The notes: generated by a model not told the origin, from the sequence alone. Positions 24,003-36,192 are shown, counted from the first letter of the stretch. The stretch: DNA of 64,000 nucleotides from a candidate division FCPU426 bacterium (GCA_040756875.1 JBFLYH010000001.1:928001-992000), one strand, 5' to 3'. Made by a program: numbers and translations.

Positions 24003-25310
24003 ATGCCAAACCGGTTGTGGCGGATAGGATTGGTTTTCATCGCTGCGCTTTGCCTGGGTTCCCGGCCATCGGTTTGGGCGCACAGCAACTTCACCTCAGC
24101 CAGCTACATTGGAGCGGATGATGTCCAGGCGTCGGGCGGCAATACAGTCGCTTCAACCTCCTACCAGGCATTAAACACGATCGCCCAGACCGGCATCGAA
24201 ACTTTATCTTCGACCAGCTACGTCCTTTTCGCCGGATTTGTCCACCCGCTGGCCGCGACGCCCACGCCGACGCCCACATGCAGCAGCACGATAACTCCGA
24301 CAGTCACGCCGACACCCACGCGTACCGTTACGCCGACAGTCACCCCTACCTCAACCGCCACTCCGACAGCGAGCAGCACTTCCACGGGCACGATCACGGT
24401 CACTGCCAGTCTCACAGCCACGGTTACCGTCACTTCTACCGGAACGCCAACCGCCACTTTCACTGGAACTCCGACCGTCACTTCCACTGGCACAGCCACC
24501 GCCTCCGCCACTTCCACCTGCACGATCAGCACCACCATCACTCCGGGCAGCAGCCCCACTTTTACACCCACGCCTTCGGGCACTGCGAGCCGCACGCATA
24601 CGCCGACCGCCACGTCCACGGGAACCGCCACCTCAACGGTCACGGCCAGCGCCACCCATACGCCCGGCGACAGCCCGACAGCCACCGCCACGGGCTCACT
24701 CACGGCAACCCGCACTTGCACGCCGACCGTCACGGTCACCCGCACGGCCACAATCACCCCTACGGCCATCGCCACGTTTACTGCCAGTCTGACTGCCAGC
24801 GCCAGTGCGACCGCCACTCCTTTCCCCACTTCCACTGCGACGCCCACACCCAGCCCGACTTCAAACCCGGCCGGCACCGCTTCCCCGACCGCTTCCTATT
24901 CCGCTACCGCCATCCCCGCCGCAACGTTCACGTCCACAGCCGCGCCGGTTGTTCCGGCGGCGACGTCAACCCCGACTGCCACCGCCACGCTTGCTGCGCC
25001 GGCGGTTCCGGCCGAAAACGTCCCAGCCCGATTCTTCCCCAACCCGGCCTCCAAACGCTCGGGAGGAGCTTTCCGGTGCGTACTCAACGAGCGGACAGTG
25101 CCGGGCTCGAATCCATCAGAACCTTACCGGGTGCTGATCGAATGGTTTAACGCGGCGGGCGAACGCGTGGTTGCAGTCTCAGCGGTTTATCCCGCGGGGA
25201 CCCAGGTCATCCGTCTGGAAACAGCGGGGCTGAGCAGCGGAATTTACCTCTACCGGATAACAGCCAACAACCAGAAACTGGCTTCGGGCAAGGTGGCGCT
25301 GCTGGAATAA
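24003..25310 (+). CDS. Secreted protein: small Ser/Thr-rich head, long Thr/Pro stalk, T9SS-type-A-like C-terminal domain
   Basis: Signal peptide; head ASGG..STSY..TIAQ..SSTSY.LFAGF; Thr-rich region ~24255-25010; FFPNPA..WFNAAGERV..LSSGIYLYRI..GKVALLE. Confidence 0.8.
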   Translation: MPNRLWRIGLVFIAALCLGSRPSVWAHSNFTSASYIGADDVQASGGNTVASTSYQALNTIAQTGIETLSSTSYVLFAGFVHPLAATPTPTPTCSSTITPTVTPTPTRTVTPTVTPTSTATPTASSTSTGTITVTASLTATVTVTSTGTPTATFTGTPTVTSTGTATASATSTCTISTTITPGSSPTFTPTPSGTASRTHTPTATSTGTATSTVTASATHTPGDSPTATATGSLTATRTCTPTVTVTRTATITPTAIATFTASLTASASATATPFPTSTATPTPSPTSNPAGTASPTASYSATAIPAATFTSTAAPVVPAATSTPTATATLAAPAVPAENVPARFFPNPASKRSGGAFRCVLNERTVPGSNPSEPYRVLIEWFNAAGERVVAVSAVYPAGTQVIRLETAGLSSGIYLYRITANNQKLASGKVALLE

Positions 25311-27627: not shown

Positions 27628-29382
27628 CTAGATGGTTTTAAATCCCCACTTCACCCAGGAAGACAAATGTTTGTCGTAATGCGAAGCAGGGAGTCCCACT
27701 AGTAGCAAGTGTCGTGCTCGTGTCATTGCGACATAGGCCAAACGTCGTTCTTCGTTATTGGTATTTGATTCGATCGCTTTTAAAACCGCATTAAAGAATT
27801 GTGCAGATCCTAATACCAGAACTCCGTCGATACTTTCGCCTTTCACTTTGTGGATGGTTTCTTGCCTGATTCGAGGGAATAAAGTTTGTGGCTGGAAAAG
27901 GGGTAATGTTAATTTATGTGCATCAATTCCAGTCCGTTTGATTTTTAATCCTAATTTGGGCAGATTTGTAATGCCTATATCTGTAAATAGACTACTAAGA
28001 TTTGTCTTCAACTTCTCAATCCACTCTTCGCAATTCTCGCTTACCAGCGGAAGCCCTTCCGGAGATTTCGTGAATTTCCAAAGTGCCAATTTTATTCGAT
28101 GTGATTCATTCGAATCAGGATTTTCATCATATTCTTCCCACAAATTAGGTTCATCAATCATTTGTCGAATTGAATTTTCTACAATATGTTGTGCTTTCCG
28201 ATAGTCTTTATGGGTATCTCTATAAAAAGCTGCCTGAGCCATGTCTTTGGTAAGTCCCTGCAGGCTTATATAGTTCACATCACCTCGTATAGTTTCAAGC
28301 TGTTGATGAGCGCGACAAAGAATTGCGCTTCTCGTCAGAGGAATATTCGCTAAGTTTAAAAGTCGCTCAAATTCCGCGATACTTTTTCCAAACCCAGAAC
28401 TAGGTTCTCTCACAATAAAGGGGTGATGATATTCATTTTCAATTCCGCCACATCCAACGAAGGAAATATTTCCGCTAATATTTTTAACCGATTCCGCTAT
28501 TCTATTATTGCAGCGAAATGATTTACTTAATGGCTTCTCTGGAATATTCCACTTTTTCTTTAAAGCAGGCAGTGATGTTGCATCGGCCATACTAAATTCA
28601 TAAATACATTGATCAGGGTCGCCAACTAAAGTAATCTTAGTACCCTTATCGCGAATAAAATTTAAAAGTATTAGAAGCCACGCGTTTGTGTCTTGAGCTT
28701 CATCAACAACTATTTCCGGAAACCTTCGTGCGATACATTCGGCTATATGAGGGCGTTCAAATAGAATACGGCAAGCGAGGTAAACCCGTTGGGCATGGGT
28801 GTAATATCCATATTTAAAGAACTCTTCAACAGGATGGTTTTCTCTAAATTCAAGGGTTTGTCCCCCAAATTTATCGGATGCTCGGAATGCGACTTTTAAA
28901 TTATCTGGAAAAGGAATGATTTCCCAGGCTGGGACAGGTATTGTACCTCTTTTTGTTTTAGTCCATGCTTGTAGTTTTGTGTTAGCCCAATCTCCAGGAC
29001 GAGGAGCAATGAATAATTTGGGCCTTTTTACAGATCCGCAAATAAGATGGCCAAAAGGAGTAATTATAAATCGCTCGACAAAAGAATCGAAAGTTCCAAC
29101 ATAATTCGGATCAGATAGTAGACCTCTTTGGCCAACTTTTATTGTTGCTTCATGGAATTCCCTAATTGCAGCATTCGTAAACGAAAGTAAAGCAAGGCCT
29201 CCAACATTATAAGACCAGTTTGCTCCCCGCCAGATGAATCGTCGGCAGGATGTCCAGGTTTTTCCACTTCCAGGGGCTGCTCGAAGGAGGAACTCCAAAT
29301 CATCGGCAAAGATCGCATCGCATTGTTCGGTAGTAGGTCCCTGATTAAGGATTTGTACTCGTAGCTTCTCTGTACCGTCCAT
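27628..29382 (-). CDS. gajB: UvrD/Rep-like SF1 helicase (Gabija GajB-type)
   Basis: AAPGSGKT, LSFTNAA, GTFDSF, VVDEAQD, VGDPDQ.IY.F, SFRC, TIHKVKG, EERRLAYVAMTRAR. Overlaps the OLD nuclease gene. Confidence 0.85.
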   Translation of the reverse strand: MDGTEKLRVQILNQGPTTEQCDAIFADDLEFLLRAAPGSGKTWTSCRRFIWRGANWSYNVGGLALLSFTNAAIREFHEATIKVGQRGLLSDPNYVGTFDSFVERFIITPFGHLICGSVKRPKLFIAPRPGDWANTKLQAWTKTKRGTIPVPAWEIIPFPDNLKVAFRASDKFGGQTLEFRENHPVEEFFKYGYYTHAQRVYLACRILFERPHIAECIARRFPEIVVDEAQDTNAWLLILLNFIRDKGTKITLVGDPDQCIYEFSMADATSLPALKKKWNIPEKPLSKSFRCNNRIAESVKNISGNISFVGCGGIENEYHHPFIVREPSSGFGKSIAEFERLLNLANIPLTRSAILCRAHQQLETIRGDVNYISLQGLTKDMAQAAFYRDTHKDYRKAQHIVENSIRQMIDEPNLWEEYDENPDSNESHRIKLALWKFTKSPEGLPLVSENCEEWIEKLKTNLSSLFTDIGITNLPKLGLKIKRTGIDAHKLTLPLFQPQTLFPRIRQETIHKVKGESIDGVLVLGSAQFFNAVLKAIESNTNNEERRLAYVAMTRARHLLLVGLPASHYDKHLSSWVKWGFKTI

Positions 29383-31072
29383 TTAACTCCTCGTTTTTAG
29401 TAACACCTAGATACAGAAAGGCATTTCTAATATATTGTGGAATTACATTGGCCGTTAAATCATTTGCCATTTCTAAAAGTCCTGCCAATTCTTGCGCGAA
29501 TTGACCCTTGGATGTATTATTTCGAAGAAACTCAGTAAGGAATGTATCAGCCTTCTGTTCATCAGAACCTATCGATGCAATCGTATTTCTGAGCATTTTT
29601 CCGTTTCTTGGATATAGTGATTCAAAGGCATCAAGCATAAACGGCAACAATTTCGGTGAACACGCCAATTCATGTTCGAAAGTTATTCGACTTAGTTCAA
29701 CTCGAAGATTAGGAATTTCACTCTCCTTCCTTTTTAGTTCAGAAGCGGTTATTGAAGGAGCACCAGTTTTTTCAACATCATCACCATCAGTAAGAACTAC
29801 AACCGGCAAATTGAGACAATCAGTTCCGAATAGAGGAAGAAAGGCGTTAAAATTGATACCATCAGTATTTAGCACGGTGATAGCGGATTCCTTAAGACAG
29901 CCTCCGCATATTCGAGCGAGAGCAGGAAGCAAGAGCGCTTCAGCGATCCCCTCTACCATTAATATTTTTCGTGCGAAAAATAATTCAGCTCGAGTTGCAT
30001 CAAGAAATCGTTGAAGTTTCATTTTAAGCACTTGATCAAAATTAATCAAACAAATGGATACCGCACTAACCCTACCATGAATTTCATGGACGGAAATTAT
30101 CGAATCGATTGGAGCCTGGCTTGCTAAAATAGGTGAATGACTACTCACAATAACCTGCACACCATCTTCACTAGAAACTTTCACAAAATGTCTAAGTAGA
30201 AGGACTTGAAGCTGTGGGTGCAGATGGGCTTCTGGCTCCTCCACTAATATGGACCGATAAAAATATCGATCGCTTCGTTTGAGTGTTCCGAGAGTCGCGG
30301 CGGTAAATACAAGATTATTATATCCAAGGCCATTAAGTGAAAATGGCAATCCTTCAATCTCGGGCTGAAGACCGGCAATAATTTTGTGAAAAGTCGGGTC
30401 GCTGAATATCAATTCCGTTTTCTGCGTCAATTCCCCGCCAGCTATTGAAGTCATTTGATTATCAATATCCGCTTTAGCGTCCTTAACAGATTTTAGATCT
30501 CGAATTTTGTTGTTAGCTTCTTTGGCAATCGTTTCAAATTCCACATGTTTGTTTTCTTCGGTGAGACTATCAATAAGGCGGGATATTTGAGAATATCTAC
30601 CAGGCTTCAATCCACTTTCCGGATCTCTTAGAGGTTGAAGATAAATTGAGGTTAGTCTATCATAGAAATTTGCAGAAAGGCTTCCGCCCTCGGTTTCACC
30701 GCCCCACATCTTCACATTTGCACGTCGTGTAATGGAATTGAATTCAGCACGGGCATTTAATTTCACTTCAAACTTGCCATTACCAATATCCACGAGACAT
30801 TCGTGGAAGCAAACTTCCTCATCGTCATTGAGATCGCAAAAAGTGCATGATATTTCAATAGGAACGTTCCCTGTTCCTTGACGAAAATCATCTTCATTAA
30901 TTCTGAGCGCATCAAAATCGCGGCTTGAAAACAGCATCAATCGAAGCGCGTCAATGATAGTCGTCTTCCCAGCATTGTTTTCGCCAATAATCACACTTAA
31001 ACCCCGAGGAAAAGTTACCGTGAGGTTTTCAATTTTACGGAAATTTTTAATATGCAAGTTATATAATCTCAT
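29345..31072 (-). CDS. gajA: OLD-family ATP-dependent endonuclease, ABC ATPase plus TOPRIM (Gabija GajA-type)
   Basis: I.NFR, IIGENNAGKTT, NGLGYNN, ILVEEPEAHLHPQLQ, SSHSP, TOPRIM MVEGIAE and LTDGD, TFE.EL, KG.FAQ.LA. Confidence 0.88.
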   Translation of the reverse strand: MRLYNLHIKNFRKIENLTVTFPRGLSVIIGENNAGKTTIIDALRLMLFSSRDFDALRINEDDFRQGTGNVPIEISCTFCDLNDDEEVCFHECLVDIGNGKFEVKLNARAEFNSITRRANVKMWGGETEGGSLSANFYDRLTSIYLQPLRDPESGLKPGRYSQISRLIDSLTEENKHVEFETIAKEANNKIRDLKSVKDAKADIDNQMTSIAGGELTQKTELIFSDPTFHKIIAGLQPEIEGLPFSLNGLGYNNLVFTAATLGTLKRSDRYFYRSILVEEPEAHLHPQLQVLLLRHFVKVSSEDGVQVIVSSHSPILASQAPIDSIISVHEIHGRVSAVSICLINFDQVLKMKLQRFLDATRAELFFARKILMVEGIAEALLLPALARICGGCLKESAITVLNTDGINFNAFLPLFGTDCLNLPVVVLTDGDDVEKTGAPSITASELKRKESEIPNLRVELSRITFEHELACSPKLLPFMLDAFESLYPRNGKMLRNTIASIGSDEQKADTFLTEFLRNNTSKGQFAQELAGLLEMANDLTANVIPQYIRNAFLYLGVTKNEELNGRYREATSTNP

Positions 31073-31560: not shown

Positions 31561-31637
31561 CGGGGTGTAGCGCAGTTGGCTAGCGCACCTGCTTTGGGAG
31601 CAGGGGGTCGGCGGTTCAAATCCGCCCACCCCGACCA
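31561..31637 (+). tRNA. tRNA-Pro (anticodon TGG)
   Basis: CGGGGTG acceptor pairs with CACCCCG-A-CCA; anticodon arm CCTGC-TTTGGGA-GCAGG; T-arm GGCGG-TTCAAAT-CCGCC. Confidence 0.97.
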
Positions 31638-31688: not shown

Positions 31689-31765
31689 GTCCCAGTAGCT
31701 CAGCTGGATAGAGCAACGGATTTCTAATCCGTCGGTCGCGGGTTCGACTCCTGCCTGGGACGCCA
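31689..31765 (+). tRNA. tRNA-Arg (anticodon TCT)
   Basis: GTCCCAG acceptor pairs with CTGGGAC-G-CCA; anticodon arm ACGGA-TTTCTAA-TCCGT; T-loop TTCGACT. Confidence 0.97.
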
Positions 31766-32537: not shown

Positions 32538-33278
32538 TTAACTGGCGATCATTTCCCGTTCAGGCGAGTCGATAAGCTCCCGCTGCCGGCTGATCAGACT
32601 CTGGATGCCCCTGCCGGCCAGATCCAACATGAGGTTCAGCTGATCCCGCGAAAACGCCTGTTTTTCGGCAGTGCCCTGCACTTCGATCAATTGGCCTCCG
32701 CCGGTCATGACGACGTTCATGTCCACTTCAGCCCGGCTGTCCTCGGAATAATCCAGGTCCAGCAGCATCTCCCCGTCCACCAGACCCACCGAAACCGCGG
32801 CCACGAAATCCCTGAGCGGCCATTCAGCCAGCCGGCCTTTCTGAGTGAGGCTGCGGCAGGCATCGGCCAGCGCCAAATACGCGCCGGTAATGGCGGCGGT
32901 CCGGGTGCCGCCGTCCGCTTGCAAAACATCGCAGTCCAACAATACGGTCCGCTCCCCCAGTAATCTCAAATCCGTGACTGTCCGCAGGGAGCGGCCGATC
33001 AGACGTTGGATTTCCTGGGTCCGGCCCGTGCGGCCGCGTCCGGCTTCGCGCTGAATCCGTTCGGGCGAAGAGCGCGGCAGCATGCCGTATTCCGCCGTCA
33101 CCCACCCCTGGCCTTTGCCGCGCAGAAAGGGCGGCACCTCATCCTGCACGGTCGCCGTGCAGATGACCTTGGTCTCGCCGGTCTCGATCAGCACTGCGCC
33201 CTCGACCATTCGCAGATAGTTCCGGGTCAGTTTCAGGGGCCTGATCGCATCAGCCGCCCGTTGATTATATCGCGTCAT
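32538..33278 (-). CDS. rph: Ribonuclease PH
   Basis: [68 protein letters not shown]. Confidence 0.98.
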
Positions 33279-34039
33279 GTCCTCTCCTTGGCCAGCAAGG
33301 CCAGGCACCCATTGGCGCCGTTATATTCGGGGTGCGCCGGCACGTTGACTTGAAAACCGGCCTGCCGCAGGTAATAAACCAAAGCCTGGTTCCTGGCGCC
33401 GCCGCCCACGAAAACCAGCTGTTTCAGCGGCCAACGCTCCAGCATGGGCCGCAGTCTCAGGAACACGGAATGGTTGACCCCAGCGCAGAGGCGGGCCAGA
33501 GGCACGCCGTCCGCCACTTTGCCCACAATCTCGGATTCCGCATACACCGCGCAGGTGGTGGACAAATCAGCCGGGTCCAGATAATAGCTAAAAAGCGTTT
33601 CCAAATCAACACCCATCACCTGGGCCATGTTTTCCAGGTAGCGCCCGCTCCCGGCGGCGCATTTGTCGTTGACCACGAAGTCTTCGACATGCCCGTCCCT
33701 GACGCGGACGGTCTTGGTGTCCTGGCCGCCCAAATCCAGAAGGCAAAACTCGCCCGGATGCCCCGCAGCCGCACCCCAGGCGTGCGCCTCAATCTCGCTT
33801 ACCACGAGAACGCCGGGCAGCTTGACATTATGCCGTCCGTATCCGGTCGCTGCCACTTCATCCAGGAACGGCAAGTCCAGCGAGGAGAGATCCAGGACAT
33901 GAGTTCCATCCTCCTGGCCACGGCTGTGATCGTGATAGAGACGGAAGGTCGGCAGGCTGAAACGCCGGAATTGGCCTTCGCCCGCGTCTAAAACGAATTT
34001 AACCTGGCGCGATCCGATATCAATGCCGAGTCGAACCAT
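33275..34039 (-). CDS. HgdC/HadI-like Fe-S activator ATPase (BadF/BadG/BcrA/BcrD family)
   Basis: [56 protein letters not shown]. Confidence 0.92.
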
Positions 34040-35048
34040 GTTGGGCCTTCTTTTTATGCCGCAGCATGTGCAGAAAAGCGTCCAAGCGGGTGCGGGTACG
34101 GCCATCCAACGGCCCCACCCGGTCGCCTTCCAGACTCAACACCGGCATTTTCAGATGCTGTCGAAATCCCTGATCCTCCAACTGATGGTGGCAAAAAGCC
34201 TGGATGTAGTGAATGTAGCCGTCCAATTGCCTGATTTGGGCCTGTTCCTGGATATCACGCAATCGCCCAAATACACTATACGGATAGGTATAATTCAAAT
34301 TTTGATCAAGTAAATCCTTGGCATATTCAGGCATGGCGAACTGCCGCGCAATCTCATTGAACACAACTCTCGCCCCGCGTTCTTCAAGATAGGAATAGAG
34401 GTCCGAAAACACGCCCGGCACCCCCAACAAGCCCAACCGGATCTCATCCGCCGGGTAGTCACGTGGCGGTTTTCTCAGCATCGCATCCAGTTCCATCTGA
34501 AAAACATCCGGGTCGCTTTTAAAGTCAGTGCAATTGACCAGGGCATATAAATTTTCCTGGCCCGAAAAGCTGTTCAGCTCCCAGGTTCGCCGATCAATTT
34601 CATGGGCCAGTTTCCGTATGACATCCAGGCGCTTTTTAGCTTCTTCAACCGCGTCCCATTGGACCCCGAAATACTCCATTAACTTTTGGACTTCCCGCCT
34701 CAACAGTTGCCGGTCCTGGTCATAGGGATACGAAAATGGGATGAATTCAACGCCCAAAGGCATGAGTAATTGCAACATGCTGGTCATGGGAGCGCAATCC
34801 CCTTGCATGACGCCAATGATTACGTTGATGTTCGTATTCCGGATGACGCTGTACACGCCCTTTACCCAGGCGCAGACCGTTCTGGGCATGCCTTGCCTTT
34901 CGGCCTCATCAATCAGAATCTGCGGCGGATTCCACGAAATAAAAGCGTTATTTAAATCAACCGGCACGCACCCAGAGGCATATACCACTTCCACAGGCAC
35001 GGTGGATGATATTCCAATGCGTTCCTTACCCGAGTGAACAACAGCCAT
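34020..35048 (-). CDS. 2-hydroxyacyl-CoA dehydratase D-component-like Fe-S protein (single subunit)
   Basis: IG...TVPVEV..A.G..P, CAWVKG, QGDC, DG.IHY.Q.FC, P.L.LEGD, TR.DAF..ML. Overlaps the activator gene. Confidence 0.85.
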   Translation of the reverse strand: MAVVHSGKERIGISSTVPVEVVYASGCVPVDLNNAFISWNPPQILIDEAERQGMPRTVCAWVKGVYSVIRNTNINVIIGVMQGDCAPMTSMLQLLMPLGVEFIPFSYPYDQDRQLLRREVQKLMEYFGVQWDAVEEAKKRLDVIRKLAHEIDRRTWELNSFSGQENLYALVNCTDFKSDPDVFQMELDAMLRKPPRDYPADEIRLGLLGVPGVFSDLYSYLEERGARVVFNEIARQFAMPEYAKDLLDQNLNYTYPYSVFGRLRDIQEQAQIRQLDGYIHYIQAFCHHQLEDQGFRQHLKMPVLSLEGDRVGPLDGRTRTRLDAFLHMLRHKKKAQHGSTRH

Positions 35049-35072
35049 GATAAACCTCTTGCAAACCAGTGC

Positions 35073-35834
35073 TTATTTAATCCCCAAAACCGGATGTATC
35101 TGGGGTAATAATCTAACTTGAGGGTGTTTGCGTATAACCGTTTTCATCAACATTTCCAAGGTTTTTCGCCCAGAAGGTGATTTCCAAGCAGCTCCGGTTG
35201 CAGGCTGTATAATCAAATCCCAGCCAGGTTTCACAGCATAAGCCAAAGCGGCGGCTTTGGCAATCTCGCGCTTGGAGGTCTCAGGCATAATAACCATTTT
35301 AATACACCCTTGTTTTTGGGGGAACTTCTTCAATACTCGATAATGGCGGGTGAAATCCGCAGATTGTTTGGTTGCAGAAGCCAGTTTAAAATCAAGGGAA
35401 ACGAAATCAAATATACCAATCTGTTTGATATTAAGAGTGTTTTCTAATCCATTTGTTTCCAATAATATTTTCGTTTTATTCATGCTTTTCTTTAAGCTGC
35501 GGGCTAATTTAACTAAAAATTCCGGCTGTTCCAAAGGTTCGCCGCCCGTAATAGCAATGCTATGAATCGGGCCCAGGGCGAGGACAAGACTTTTAATTTC
35601 CTGCACAAGTCCAGGTATGGCCACTGGATTATTTAAACGACGAATCCTGGGTGGAATACGTATTGCCCAGGTGTCCGGCTTAGGGATCCTTCCCCGCTTT
35701 GTGTCACAGTATTGGCACCTTTGCCTGCATCCCGCCAAACGGATGAAAAGCTGCCTCCGTCCCACCCAGCTTCCCTCTCCCTGATGGCTGATAAAAACCT
35801 CGGATAGGTATCCCCGGATTTGTTCATTCTTCAT
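35073..35834 (-). CDS. queE: 7-carboxy-7-deazaguanine synthase QueE (radical SAM)
   Basis: SEVF.S.QGEG..VG..Q.FIRL.GCRQRCQYCDT, ITGGEPL, LETNG, SLD.KL, PQ.H at the C-terminus. Confidence 0.9.
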   Translation of the reverse strand: MKNEQIRGYLSEVFISHQGEGSWVGRRQLFIRLAGCRQRCQYCDTKRGRIPKPDTWAIRIPPRIRRLNNPVAIPGLVQEIKSLVLALGPIHSIAITGGEPLEQPEFLVKLARSLKKSMNKTKILLETNGLENTLNIKQIGIFDFVSLDFKLASATKQSADFTRHYRVLKKFPQKQGCIKMVIMPETSKREIAKAAALAYAVKPGWDLIIQPATGAAWKSPSGRKTLEMLMKTVIRKHPQVRLLPQIHPVLGIK

Positions 35835-36192
35835 AGCGGACATACGCCCTGGCCGATTCCCAAACGGTTATTGCTTTCATTTTGACTGGAGAGCCTTCCA
35901 AAGCCTGTTGGCAATGACGGTAAATAACGCGCGCCAAATTTTCAGAGGTGGGGTTGATGTCTGCGAAATCCGGGAGGCTGTTTAAAAAAGAGTGGTCAAA
36001 TTTCTCGAGGACTTGCTGCAGCGCCTGTTTCAGGTCCTTGAAATCGATGCCCAGGCCCAGCTCATCCAGGTCAGGGGTCGTCACTTCGAGGCGGACTTTC
36101 CAGTTGTGGCCGTGAAAATGCTCGCATTGGCCCTGGTATTCCCGCAACTGGTGGGCAGCTGAAAAATCCTGTTCCACGGCAATGGTGAACAT
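35824..36192 (-). CDS. queD: 6-carboxytetrahydropterin synthase QueD
   Basis: FSAAH.L, CEHFHGHNW, DF.DLK, DH..LN, NPTSENLA, VWES. Confidence 0.95.
   Translation of the reverse strand: MFTIAVEQDFSAAHQLREYQGQCEHFHGHNWKVRLEVTTPDLDELGLGIDFKDLKQALQQVLEKFDHSFLNSLPDFADINPTSENLARVIYRHCQQALEGSPVKMKAITVWESARAYVRYEE

Follow-up and report, generated by a model that had tools for sequence, protein, structure and literature searches.

A candidate ATP-driven Fe-S replacement for QueF, encoded beside queD and queE in a candidate division FCPU426 bacterium

The DNA analysed was a stretch of 64,000 nucleotides (hereafter the window, taken at its full length) from a candidate division FCPU426 bacterium (GCA_040756875.1 JBFLYH010000001.1:928001-992000). 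Four consecutive genes on its minus strand were studied: queD, a divergent queE, a gene of the HGD-D family of Fe-S proteins and a gene for an electron-transfer ATPase of the HgdC/BcrAD type ('archerase', hereafter the activase). The last two are considered here as a candidate replacement for QueF, the enzyme of queuosine synthesis that turns preQ0 (7-cyano-7-deazaguanine) into preQ1 by reducing its nitrile to an aminomethyl group. Gene queD (35824-36192) encodes a 6-carboxytetrahydropterin synthase of 122 aa (PF01242, 137 bits) that passed the QueD model TIGR03367 (102 bits, cut-off 89.25). It overlaps by 20 bp the next gene (35073-35843), whose product of 256 aa was assigned to the radical SAM enzyme 7-carboxy-7-deazaguanine synthase, with PF04055 (42.7 bits) and Fer4_12 domains. 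The stop codon of queE is separated by 24 bp from the start of the HGD-D gene (34020-35048), which encodes a single-subunit protein of 342 aa (PF06050, 116 bits, cut-off 28.4), the proposed catalytic component of a preQ0 reductase. The longest open reading frame (ORF) of the activase (33275-34105, 276 aa; PF01869, 103 bits; TIGR00241, 149.9 bits, cut-off 125.4) overlaps the HGD-D gene by 86 bp. The overlap would be 20 bp if the activase began at Met23 (position 34039), which is the likely true start and the point where similarity to its relatives begins.

These overlaps and the 24-bp gap agree with an earlier reading of the window made from the sequence alone (the first-pass annotation). The cysteine contexts quoted in it were also recovered in the translations: CAWVKG, GDC and AFC in the HGD-D protein, KCAAG and TCAV in the activase. 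The two activase cysteines are presumably cluster ligands. At the window locus only one HGD-D gene was found, and no second HGD-D subunit, CoA-transferase or amino-acid fermentation gene was seen nearby, as had been claimed. It had likewise been stated correctly that queC, queF, queG and queH are absent from the window; QueC and QueH are encoded elsewhere in the genome. The assignment of queE requires some care. Five of the seven best NCBIfam matches of its product were QueE models, all of them far under cut-off (best equivalog score, TIGR04349, 64 bits against 300), which leaves it below the threshold for membership. The gene was filed as a divergent QueE because it has a radical SAM domain, because tblastn with two canonical QueE proteins hit no other gene of the genome and because its place after queD is conserved. 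Within the order to which the bacterium belongs, no gene of the block is less conserved than queE, at 37-54% identity; the HGD-D protein has 59-77%. The block is flanked by murI, cimA and recJ upstream and by rph and rdgB downstream.

The other genes of queuosine synthesis were searched for in the whole genome (3.22 Mb, 100% complete, 0.09% contamination). FolE2, QueD, QueE, QueC, Tgt, QueA and QueH were present, with QueC encoded on contig 2 and the genes of QueH, Tgt and QueA elsewhere on contig 1. QueF was not detected in this genome with the PF14489, TIGR03139 and TIGR03138 models, each of which recovered its own family in named control genomes, nor by tblastn with the QueF proteins of two relatives. 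QueG was not found in the genome by profile search. As all other steps have genes, QueF is the only step of queuosine synthesis left without one. The FolE2 gene (PF02649, 330 bits; contig 1:1143559-1144699) adjoins a second, weak QueD/PTPS-like gene, and tblastn with the FolE of a que operon described below (locus L127) revealed no type I FolE in the genome.

The distribution of the subfamily formed by the HGD-D protein and its close relatives was compared with that of QueF. Among 41 genomes of the bacterium's own phylum, the subfamily was present in 15/15 members of its order and in 0/26 genomes elsewhere; QueF was found in none of the former and in all of the latter (22 of the 26 over the cut-off). 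QueC was kept in both groups (14/15 and 26/26). The contrast concerns one clade and counts as one event. Fifty carrier genomes from at least five phyla, among them members of Bacillota, Thermodesulfobacteriota, Chloroflexota, Armatimonadota, Brocadiia and Vulcanimicrobiota, were reached through subfamily loci. QueF was over the cut-off in none of these 50. Six weaker QueF matches in the carriers were discarded, being genes that match FolE; five of the six fall in queD/queC/queE/folE clusters without queF. QueA was found in 49 of the carriers, QueC in 37 and QueH in 32. Ten of the 18 QueH-negative carriers were examined for QueG, and it was over the cut-off in all ten. According to the first-pass annotation, carriers with the complete canonical pathway would have spoken against a role in it; here the carriers do not retain that pathway in full.

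Two even samples of 151 genomes each were also used, one from the phylum of a Desulfosporosinus and one from the phylum of a Geobacter. In the Desulfosporosinus-phylum sample the subfamily was present in 38 genomes, QueF in 32 and QueC in 44, and the subfamily and QueF never occurred together. All 44 QueC-positive genomes had exactly one of the two (subfamily in 29, QueF in 15, neither in 0). Naive Fisher p-values for this sample overstate the case, because kin are not independent and many of the genomes are metagenome-assembled genomes (MAGs). In the Geobacter-phylum sample the subfamily was present in 47 genomes, QueF in 75 and both in two. The two apparent co-occurrences were discounted: the QueF-like proteins involved (L124:861-1319 and L125:934-1371; 84.8 and 86.7 bits against the TIGR03139 cut-off of 86.9) do not have the cysteine common to the CPK motif of four aligned QueF proteins. 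The gene of one of these cysteine-less proteins adjoins thyX. The subfamily and QueF thus exclude each other, and the pattern recurs in three phylum-level contrasts. Mutual exclusivity with one of the queuosine enzymes had been named in the first-pass annotation as the way to recognize the replaced step, and for QueF it is clear in the three phylum-level samples as well as in the 50 carriers.

Gene neighbourhoods were compared within the bacterium's order and at 81 subfamily loci. In the order, the block recJ-cimA-murI-queD-queE-HGD-D-(activase)-rph-rdgB is syntenic; queD-queE-HGD-D was kept in 11/11 same-order loci that were retrieved, and the activase was adjacent in five of them. Among the 81 loci, queE was a neighbour in eight and queD in five. 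Seven of these queE genes lie outside the order, directly upstream of the HGD-D gene, six of them in Armatimonadota, and in four of the seven loci queD is there as well. A single locus, from Thermodesulfobacteriota, has queA (1/81), 175 bp downstream. Two loci hold full que operons, arranged HGD-D-activase-queC-queD-queE (L126) and HGD-D-activase-queD-queE-folE-queC (L127), and their members branch deeply within the subfamily. In canonical que operons queF occupies the place held by the HGD-D/activase pair in these two. With 11/11 same-order loci and que flanks in other phyla, the queD-queE-HGD-D arrangement is beyond chance. The recurrent que linkage of homologues by which the first-pass annotation set store is therefore real, but que genes are not the typical company of the subfamily, whose commonest neighbours are murI (42/81 loci), rph (32/81) and rdgB (31/81).

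The activase gene follows the HGD-D gene in 51/81 loci, and the HGD-D gene is present as a single copy at subfamily loci elsewhere too. Fusions were found as well: 15 of 18 long subfamily members are HGD-D/activase fusions. The HGD-D protein and the activase work together, as adjacency and fusion both indicate, and the frequency of fusions fits an ATPase that cycles as a reductase. HGD-D and BcrAD_BadFG are the only domains of the long members, none of which is fused to a que enzyme; P0063, P0035 and the L122 ORF have N-terminal extensions that gave no match at E <= 1. A CoA-transferase was not seen among the recurrent neighbours of subfamily loci, including the Bacillota loci that lie beside glutamate mutase and methylaspartase genes.

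Some loci have neighbours of other kinds. Methylaspartate-pathway genes adjoin the HGD-D/activase pair in loci of the Desulfitobacteriaceae/Carboxydocellales type (L092, L066). The genes concerned are those of methylaspartate ammonia-lyase (8 loci), glutamate mutase E (7) and a MutS-type B12-binding protein (6), and the same Bacillota loci hold a hydantoinase-like protein (7) and two fumarase/mesaconase subunits (14 and 13 loci). At three loci without que genes or murI, the gene after the pair encodes a class IIb aminoacyl-tRNA synthetase (L081:11917-13254), a seryl-tRNA synthetase (L049:4573-5850) or an RNA 3'-phosphate cyclase, RtcA (L070:5796-6824). Sixteen loci were without recognised genes; their neighbours were mixed housekeeping genes with no consistent signal.

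The extent of the subfamily was determined by a search of 1.84 billion representative proteins, which returned 330 representatives at E <= 0.001 and 114 at E <= 1e-30. A profile built from 44 members was applied to a species-genome collection and gave at least 588 matching stretches. The best 80 of these came from Bacillota (Syntrophomonas, Desulfosporosinus, Desulfitobacterium, Sporomusa, Pelosinus, Heliobacteria, Ammonifex), Thermodesulfobacteriota (Geobacteraceae and others), Chloroflexota, Armatimonadota, Brocadiia, Vulcanimicrobiota and Candidatus Firestonebacteria, the last being the window's own group. Cultured carriers include Sporomusa ovata and Desulfosporosinus nitroreducens. Match scores in the two 151-genome samples were bimodal, with none between 1e-40 and 1e-125. 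Residues C59, C85 and C286 were invariant in 83/83 genome-derived members and no other cysteine was; about 20 polar residues were also invariant across phyla. As judged from its sequences, the subfamily is small, discrete, sharply bounded and strongly constrained. Its gene tree mostly tracks the phyla, which suggests an old gene that has been mainly vertically inherited. NCBIfam (June 2026) has no model for it.

The 342-aa protein was modelled with AlphaFold 2 (AF2; pLDDT 95). Compared by Foldseek, the model matched only double-cubane cluster protein (DCCP), 2-hydroxyisocaproyl-CoA dehydratase and subunits of class I benzoyl-CoA reductase (TMq 0.67-0.77), and DCCP also came first when solved structures were ranked by sequence profile. 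DCCP with its reductase DCCP-R (Carboxydothermus hydrogenoformans; PDB 6ENO, 7YYL) is the best solved match (profile E 2e-18, fold E 1e-13, TMq 0.69). As far as the part of PMC7317905 drawn on here goes, DCCP resembles the pair in being a single-subunit acceptor served by a BcrAD/HgdC-type ATPase, in receiving electrons stoichiometrically, as is proposed for the pair, and in the occurrence of acceptor-ATPase fusions. The same source describes the reduction by DCCP of acetylene and other small unsaturated molecules and its inhibition by cyanide, and defines DCCP by a seven-cysteine motif that includes six cluster ligands (PMC7317905). By profile alignment, the subfamily keeps three positions of this motif and has no cysteine at three further positions where DCCP has them. 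The 342-aa protein is also about 80 residues shorter than DCCP. Membership of DCCP was rejected, the score on NF040772 being 39.7 bits against 350 and the invariant cysteines only three.

The only other HGD-D gene of the genome (contig 1:740925-743681), about 220 kb away, is itself DCCP-like. It scores 332.5 bits on NF040772, just under the cut-off of 350; two activase genes lie after it and a gene for a NapH-like ferredoxin protein lies before it. Since a gene of this type and one of the 34020-35048 type coexist in one genome, the two are distinct. The DCCP-like locus may lend its ATPase in relatives whose candidate QueF-replacement gene has no adjacent activase.

The 2-hydroxyacyl-CoA dehydratases HgdAB and HadBC, with their activators HgdC and HadI (PDB 3O3M), share PF06050, the fold (TMq 0.73-0.75 to 3O3M/3O3N) and the type of ATPase with the pair. 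They bind a [4Fe-4S] cluster by three cysteines and leave one iron open, according to the part of PMC7317905 drawn on here. The subfamily has a three-cysteine site too: its sequences match the pattern for such a [4Fe-4S] site, and the cluster itself is predicted from the invariant cysteines. The dehydratases are heterodimers of paralogous subunits, whereas one subunit gene is found here; and they act on CoA thioesters while recycling one catalytic electron, whereas a net four-electron reduction of a nucleobase nitrile is proposed here. Class I benzoyl-CoA reductases BzdNO and MbdON (PDB 8S02, 9GAI) have the same fold (TMq 0.70-0.77). BzdNO is described, in the part of PMC11971306 drawn on here, as having an aqua-[4Fe-4S] active site and as carrying out ATP-driven reduction beyond the usual biological redox window. 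Stoichiometric, ATP-driven delivery of electrons, as in these enzymes, is proposed for the subfamily. Benzoyl-CoA reductase differs from the pair by its four subunits, two of them different acceptor subunits, its extra [8Fe-9S] cluster, its CoA-ester substrate and the transfer of two electrons. With QueF (EC 1.7.1.13) the pair would share the reaction and the place in the pathway; it shares the operon place, and the distributions of the two are complementary. The two are not homologous. QueF belongs to the T-fold enzymes and works with NADPH and a catalytic cysteine, and the pair is predicted to be Fe-S-dependent, ATP-driven and oxygen-sensitive. No QueF domain was found on either protein in family scans; functional equivalence is proposed, not membership of QueF.

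Taken with the single gap in the pathway and the operon linkage, the complementary distributions make it likely that preQ1, whether free or already in tRNA, comes from the HGD-D/activase pair in place of QueF. By analogy with solved relatives we infer a two-component, oxygen-sensitive reductase that would convert the nitrile of preQ0 to the aminomethyl group of preQ1. In this scheme, a dimer of the ATPase with a bridging [4Fe-4S] cluster would accept electrons from ferredoxin or flavodoxin, and ATP hydrolysis would drive them at very low potential into the HGD-D partner. The latter would hold one [4Fe-4S] cluster on C59, C85 and C286, and the fourth iron would remain open to the nitrile or to a catalytic water. 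Stepwise delivery of four electrons and four protons would take the nitrile to the imine and then to the amine. A four-electron reduction would require the ATPase to deliver electrons stoichiometrically, in the manner of benzoyl-CoA reductase and DCCP, and not to act once as the activator of a dehydratase does. The chemistry of the family fits, since ATP-driven reduction or dehydration at low potential is what its solved relatives carry out. It is probable, on somewhat longer odds, that the subfamily as a whole constitutes a second family of nitrile reductases with no evolutionary relation to the first, and that many anaerobes make their preQ1 with this ATP-driven [4Fe-4S] enzyme. The breadth of this statement, a large share of anaerobic bacteria, is based on 38/151 and 47/151 genomes in the two even samples and on the at least 588 stretches of the species collection.

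The same pair could carry out the same reaction on tRNA: Tgt would insert preQ0 at position 34, and the nitrile would be reduced to give preQ1-tRNA before the action of QueA. Bacterial Tgt can accept preQ0, and the distribution data do not separate the free base from preQ0 bound to tRNA. RNA-related neighbours also recur, namely rph (32/81 loci) and the two synthetase genes and rtcA mentioned above. The rph and rdgB linkage belongs, however, to the wider housekeeping block, domain scans found no RNA-binding domain on the 342-aa protein or on the fusions, and at L126 and L127 the pair is grouped with the genes of free-base synthesis (queC, queD, queE, folE) at the canonical place of queF. Action on tRNA is for these reasons considered unlikely, and free-base preQ0 is favoured over preQ0 already in tRNA as the substrate. 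Much less likely still is a replacement of another step (QueG/QueH or QueC), or the formation of a new 7-deazaguanine derivative from 7-carboxy-7-deazaguanine (CDG) or preQ0, with which linkage to queD and queE, taken by itself, would be compatible; we give this very little credence. Three late steps had been put forward in the first-pass annotation. Nitrile reduction was retained, and epoxide deoxygenation and amide dehydration were rejected, because QueH and QueC are encoded in the window's genome and in many carriers (32/50 and 37/50), with QueG in the ten QueH-negative carriers examined. A side-product role would leave the QueF gap unfilled where QueA is kept, as it is in 49/50 carriers.

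The murI/rph/rdgB context could instead point to a housekeeping role unrelated to queuosine, such as a glutamate or D-glutamate dehydratase or reductase (from murI) or an enzyme of nucleotide or RNA repair (from rph and rdgB), with the missing QueF explained by preQ1 salvage or by a further enzyme. The murI gene is near in 42/81 loci and directly upstream in many of them, methylaspartate and glutamate mutase genes adjoin the pair in the Desulfitobacteriaceae-type loci, and the parent family is named after 2-hydroxyglutaryl-CoA dehydratase. Such a role would leave unexplained why each of the 44 QueC-positive genomes has exactly one of the subfamily and QueF, why QueF is absent from the 50 carriers and why the pair is found inside complete que operons. 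The Geobacteraceae loci have murI on the other strand, and the CoA-transferase and second dehydratase subunit that accompany such dehydratases were not seen at the window locus. The murI-rph-rdgB block is presumably conserved in Bacillus too, without the pair. We regard a housekeeping role as very unlikely.

Several points weigh against replacement of QueF by the pair. The main one is that the commonest context of the subfamily is the housekeeping block murI/rph/rdgB and not que genes. Linkage to que genes within the bacterium's order amounts to one event, because the whole block is syntenic, and the activase is not adjacent in 6/11 loci of that order. QueC was missing in 13/50 carriers and in 9/38 subfamily genomes of the Desulfosporosinus-phylum sample, and these would need imported preQ0. 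The 151-genome samples and the 50 carriers have no kinship labels, so that related genomes are counted as if they were independent, and many of the sampled genomes are MAGs of unknown completeness. A preQ1 riboswitch was detected neither in 13 subfamily loci (gathering thresholds), nor in the window, nor upstream of the que operons of L126 and L127 (E <= 1), nor in seven further Bacillota loci. To our knowledge, a four-electron reduction at a three-cysteine [4Fe-4S] enzyme of the HGD-D family is without precedent. Finally, the replacement of QueF is a prediction made from genome sequences.

Two other features of the window were recorded. A low-GC island (0.40-0.44 against about 0.6 elsewhere) on the minus strand (27628-31072) contains a Gabija defence pair, GajA (29345-31072, PADLOC 485 bits) and GajB (27628-29382, 287 bits). 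Two tRNA genes, for tRNA-Pro and tRNA-Arg, adjoin it (31561-31637 and 31689-31765), and the island has the look of an insert gained horizontally at a tRNA site. On the plus strand, a 435-aa ORF (24003-25310) is dominated by threonine/proline/serine-rich repeats and may encode a surface protein.

QueF is presented as the only known family for the direct reduction of a nitrile to an amine in the part of a November 2026 review drawn on here (PMC13740343). Full-text searches brought up no literature linking the subfamily to queuosine; the supplementary tables of PMC13740343, PMC6593275 and PMC11130926 might list queF-less genomes. A pair that replaces QueF would be a new function within a known enzyme superfamily. 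If the proposal is true, it provides a second, unrelated solution to the conversion of nitrile to amine, of interest for tRNA modification, Fe-S enzymology and biocatalysis, and it would be the first four-electron reduction shown in the dehydratase/benzoyl-CoA-reductase superfamily. It would also give the first physiological substrate to a single-subunit relative of the double-cubane proteins. The substrate would be testable, and the protein concerned is closely related to the DCCPs, which have neither a known function nor a known physiological substrate according to the part of PMC7317905 drawn on here. In pathway reconstruction, the pair would close a hole in queuosine synthesis: genomes with queC, tgt and queA and without queF, now read as incomplete or as those of salvagers, would make preQ1 by another enzyme. 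Between roughly a quarter and a third of the genomes sampled in the two phyla are affected by how such queF-less genomes are read.

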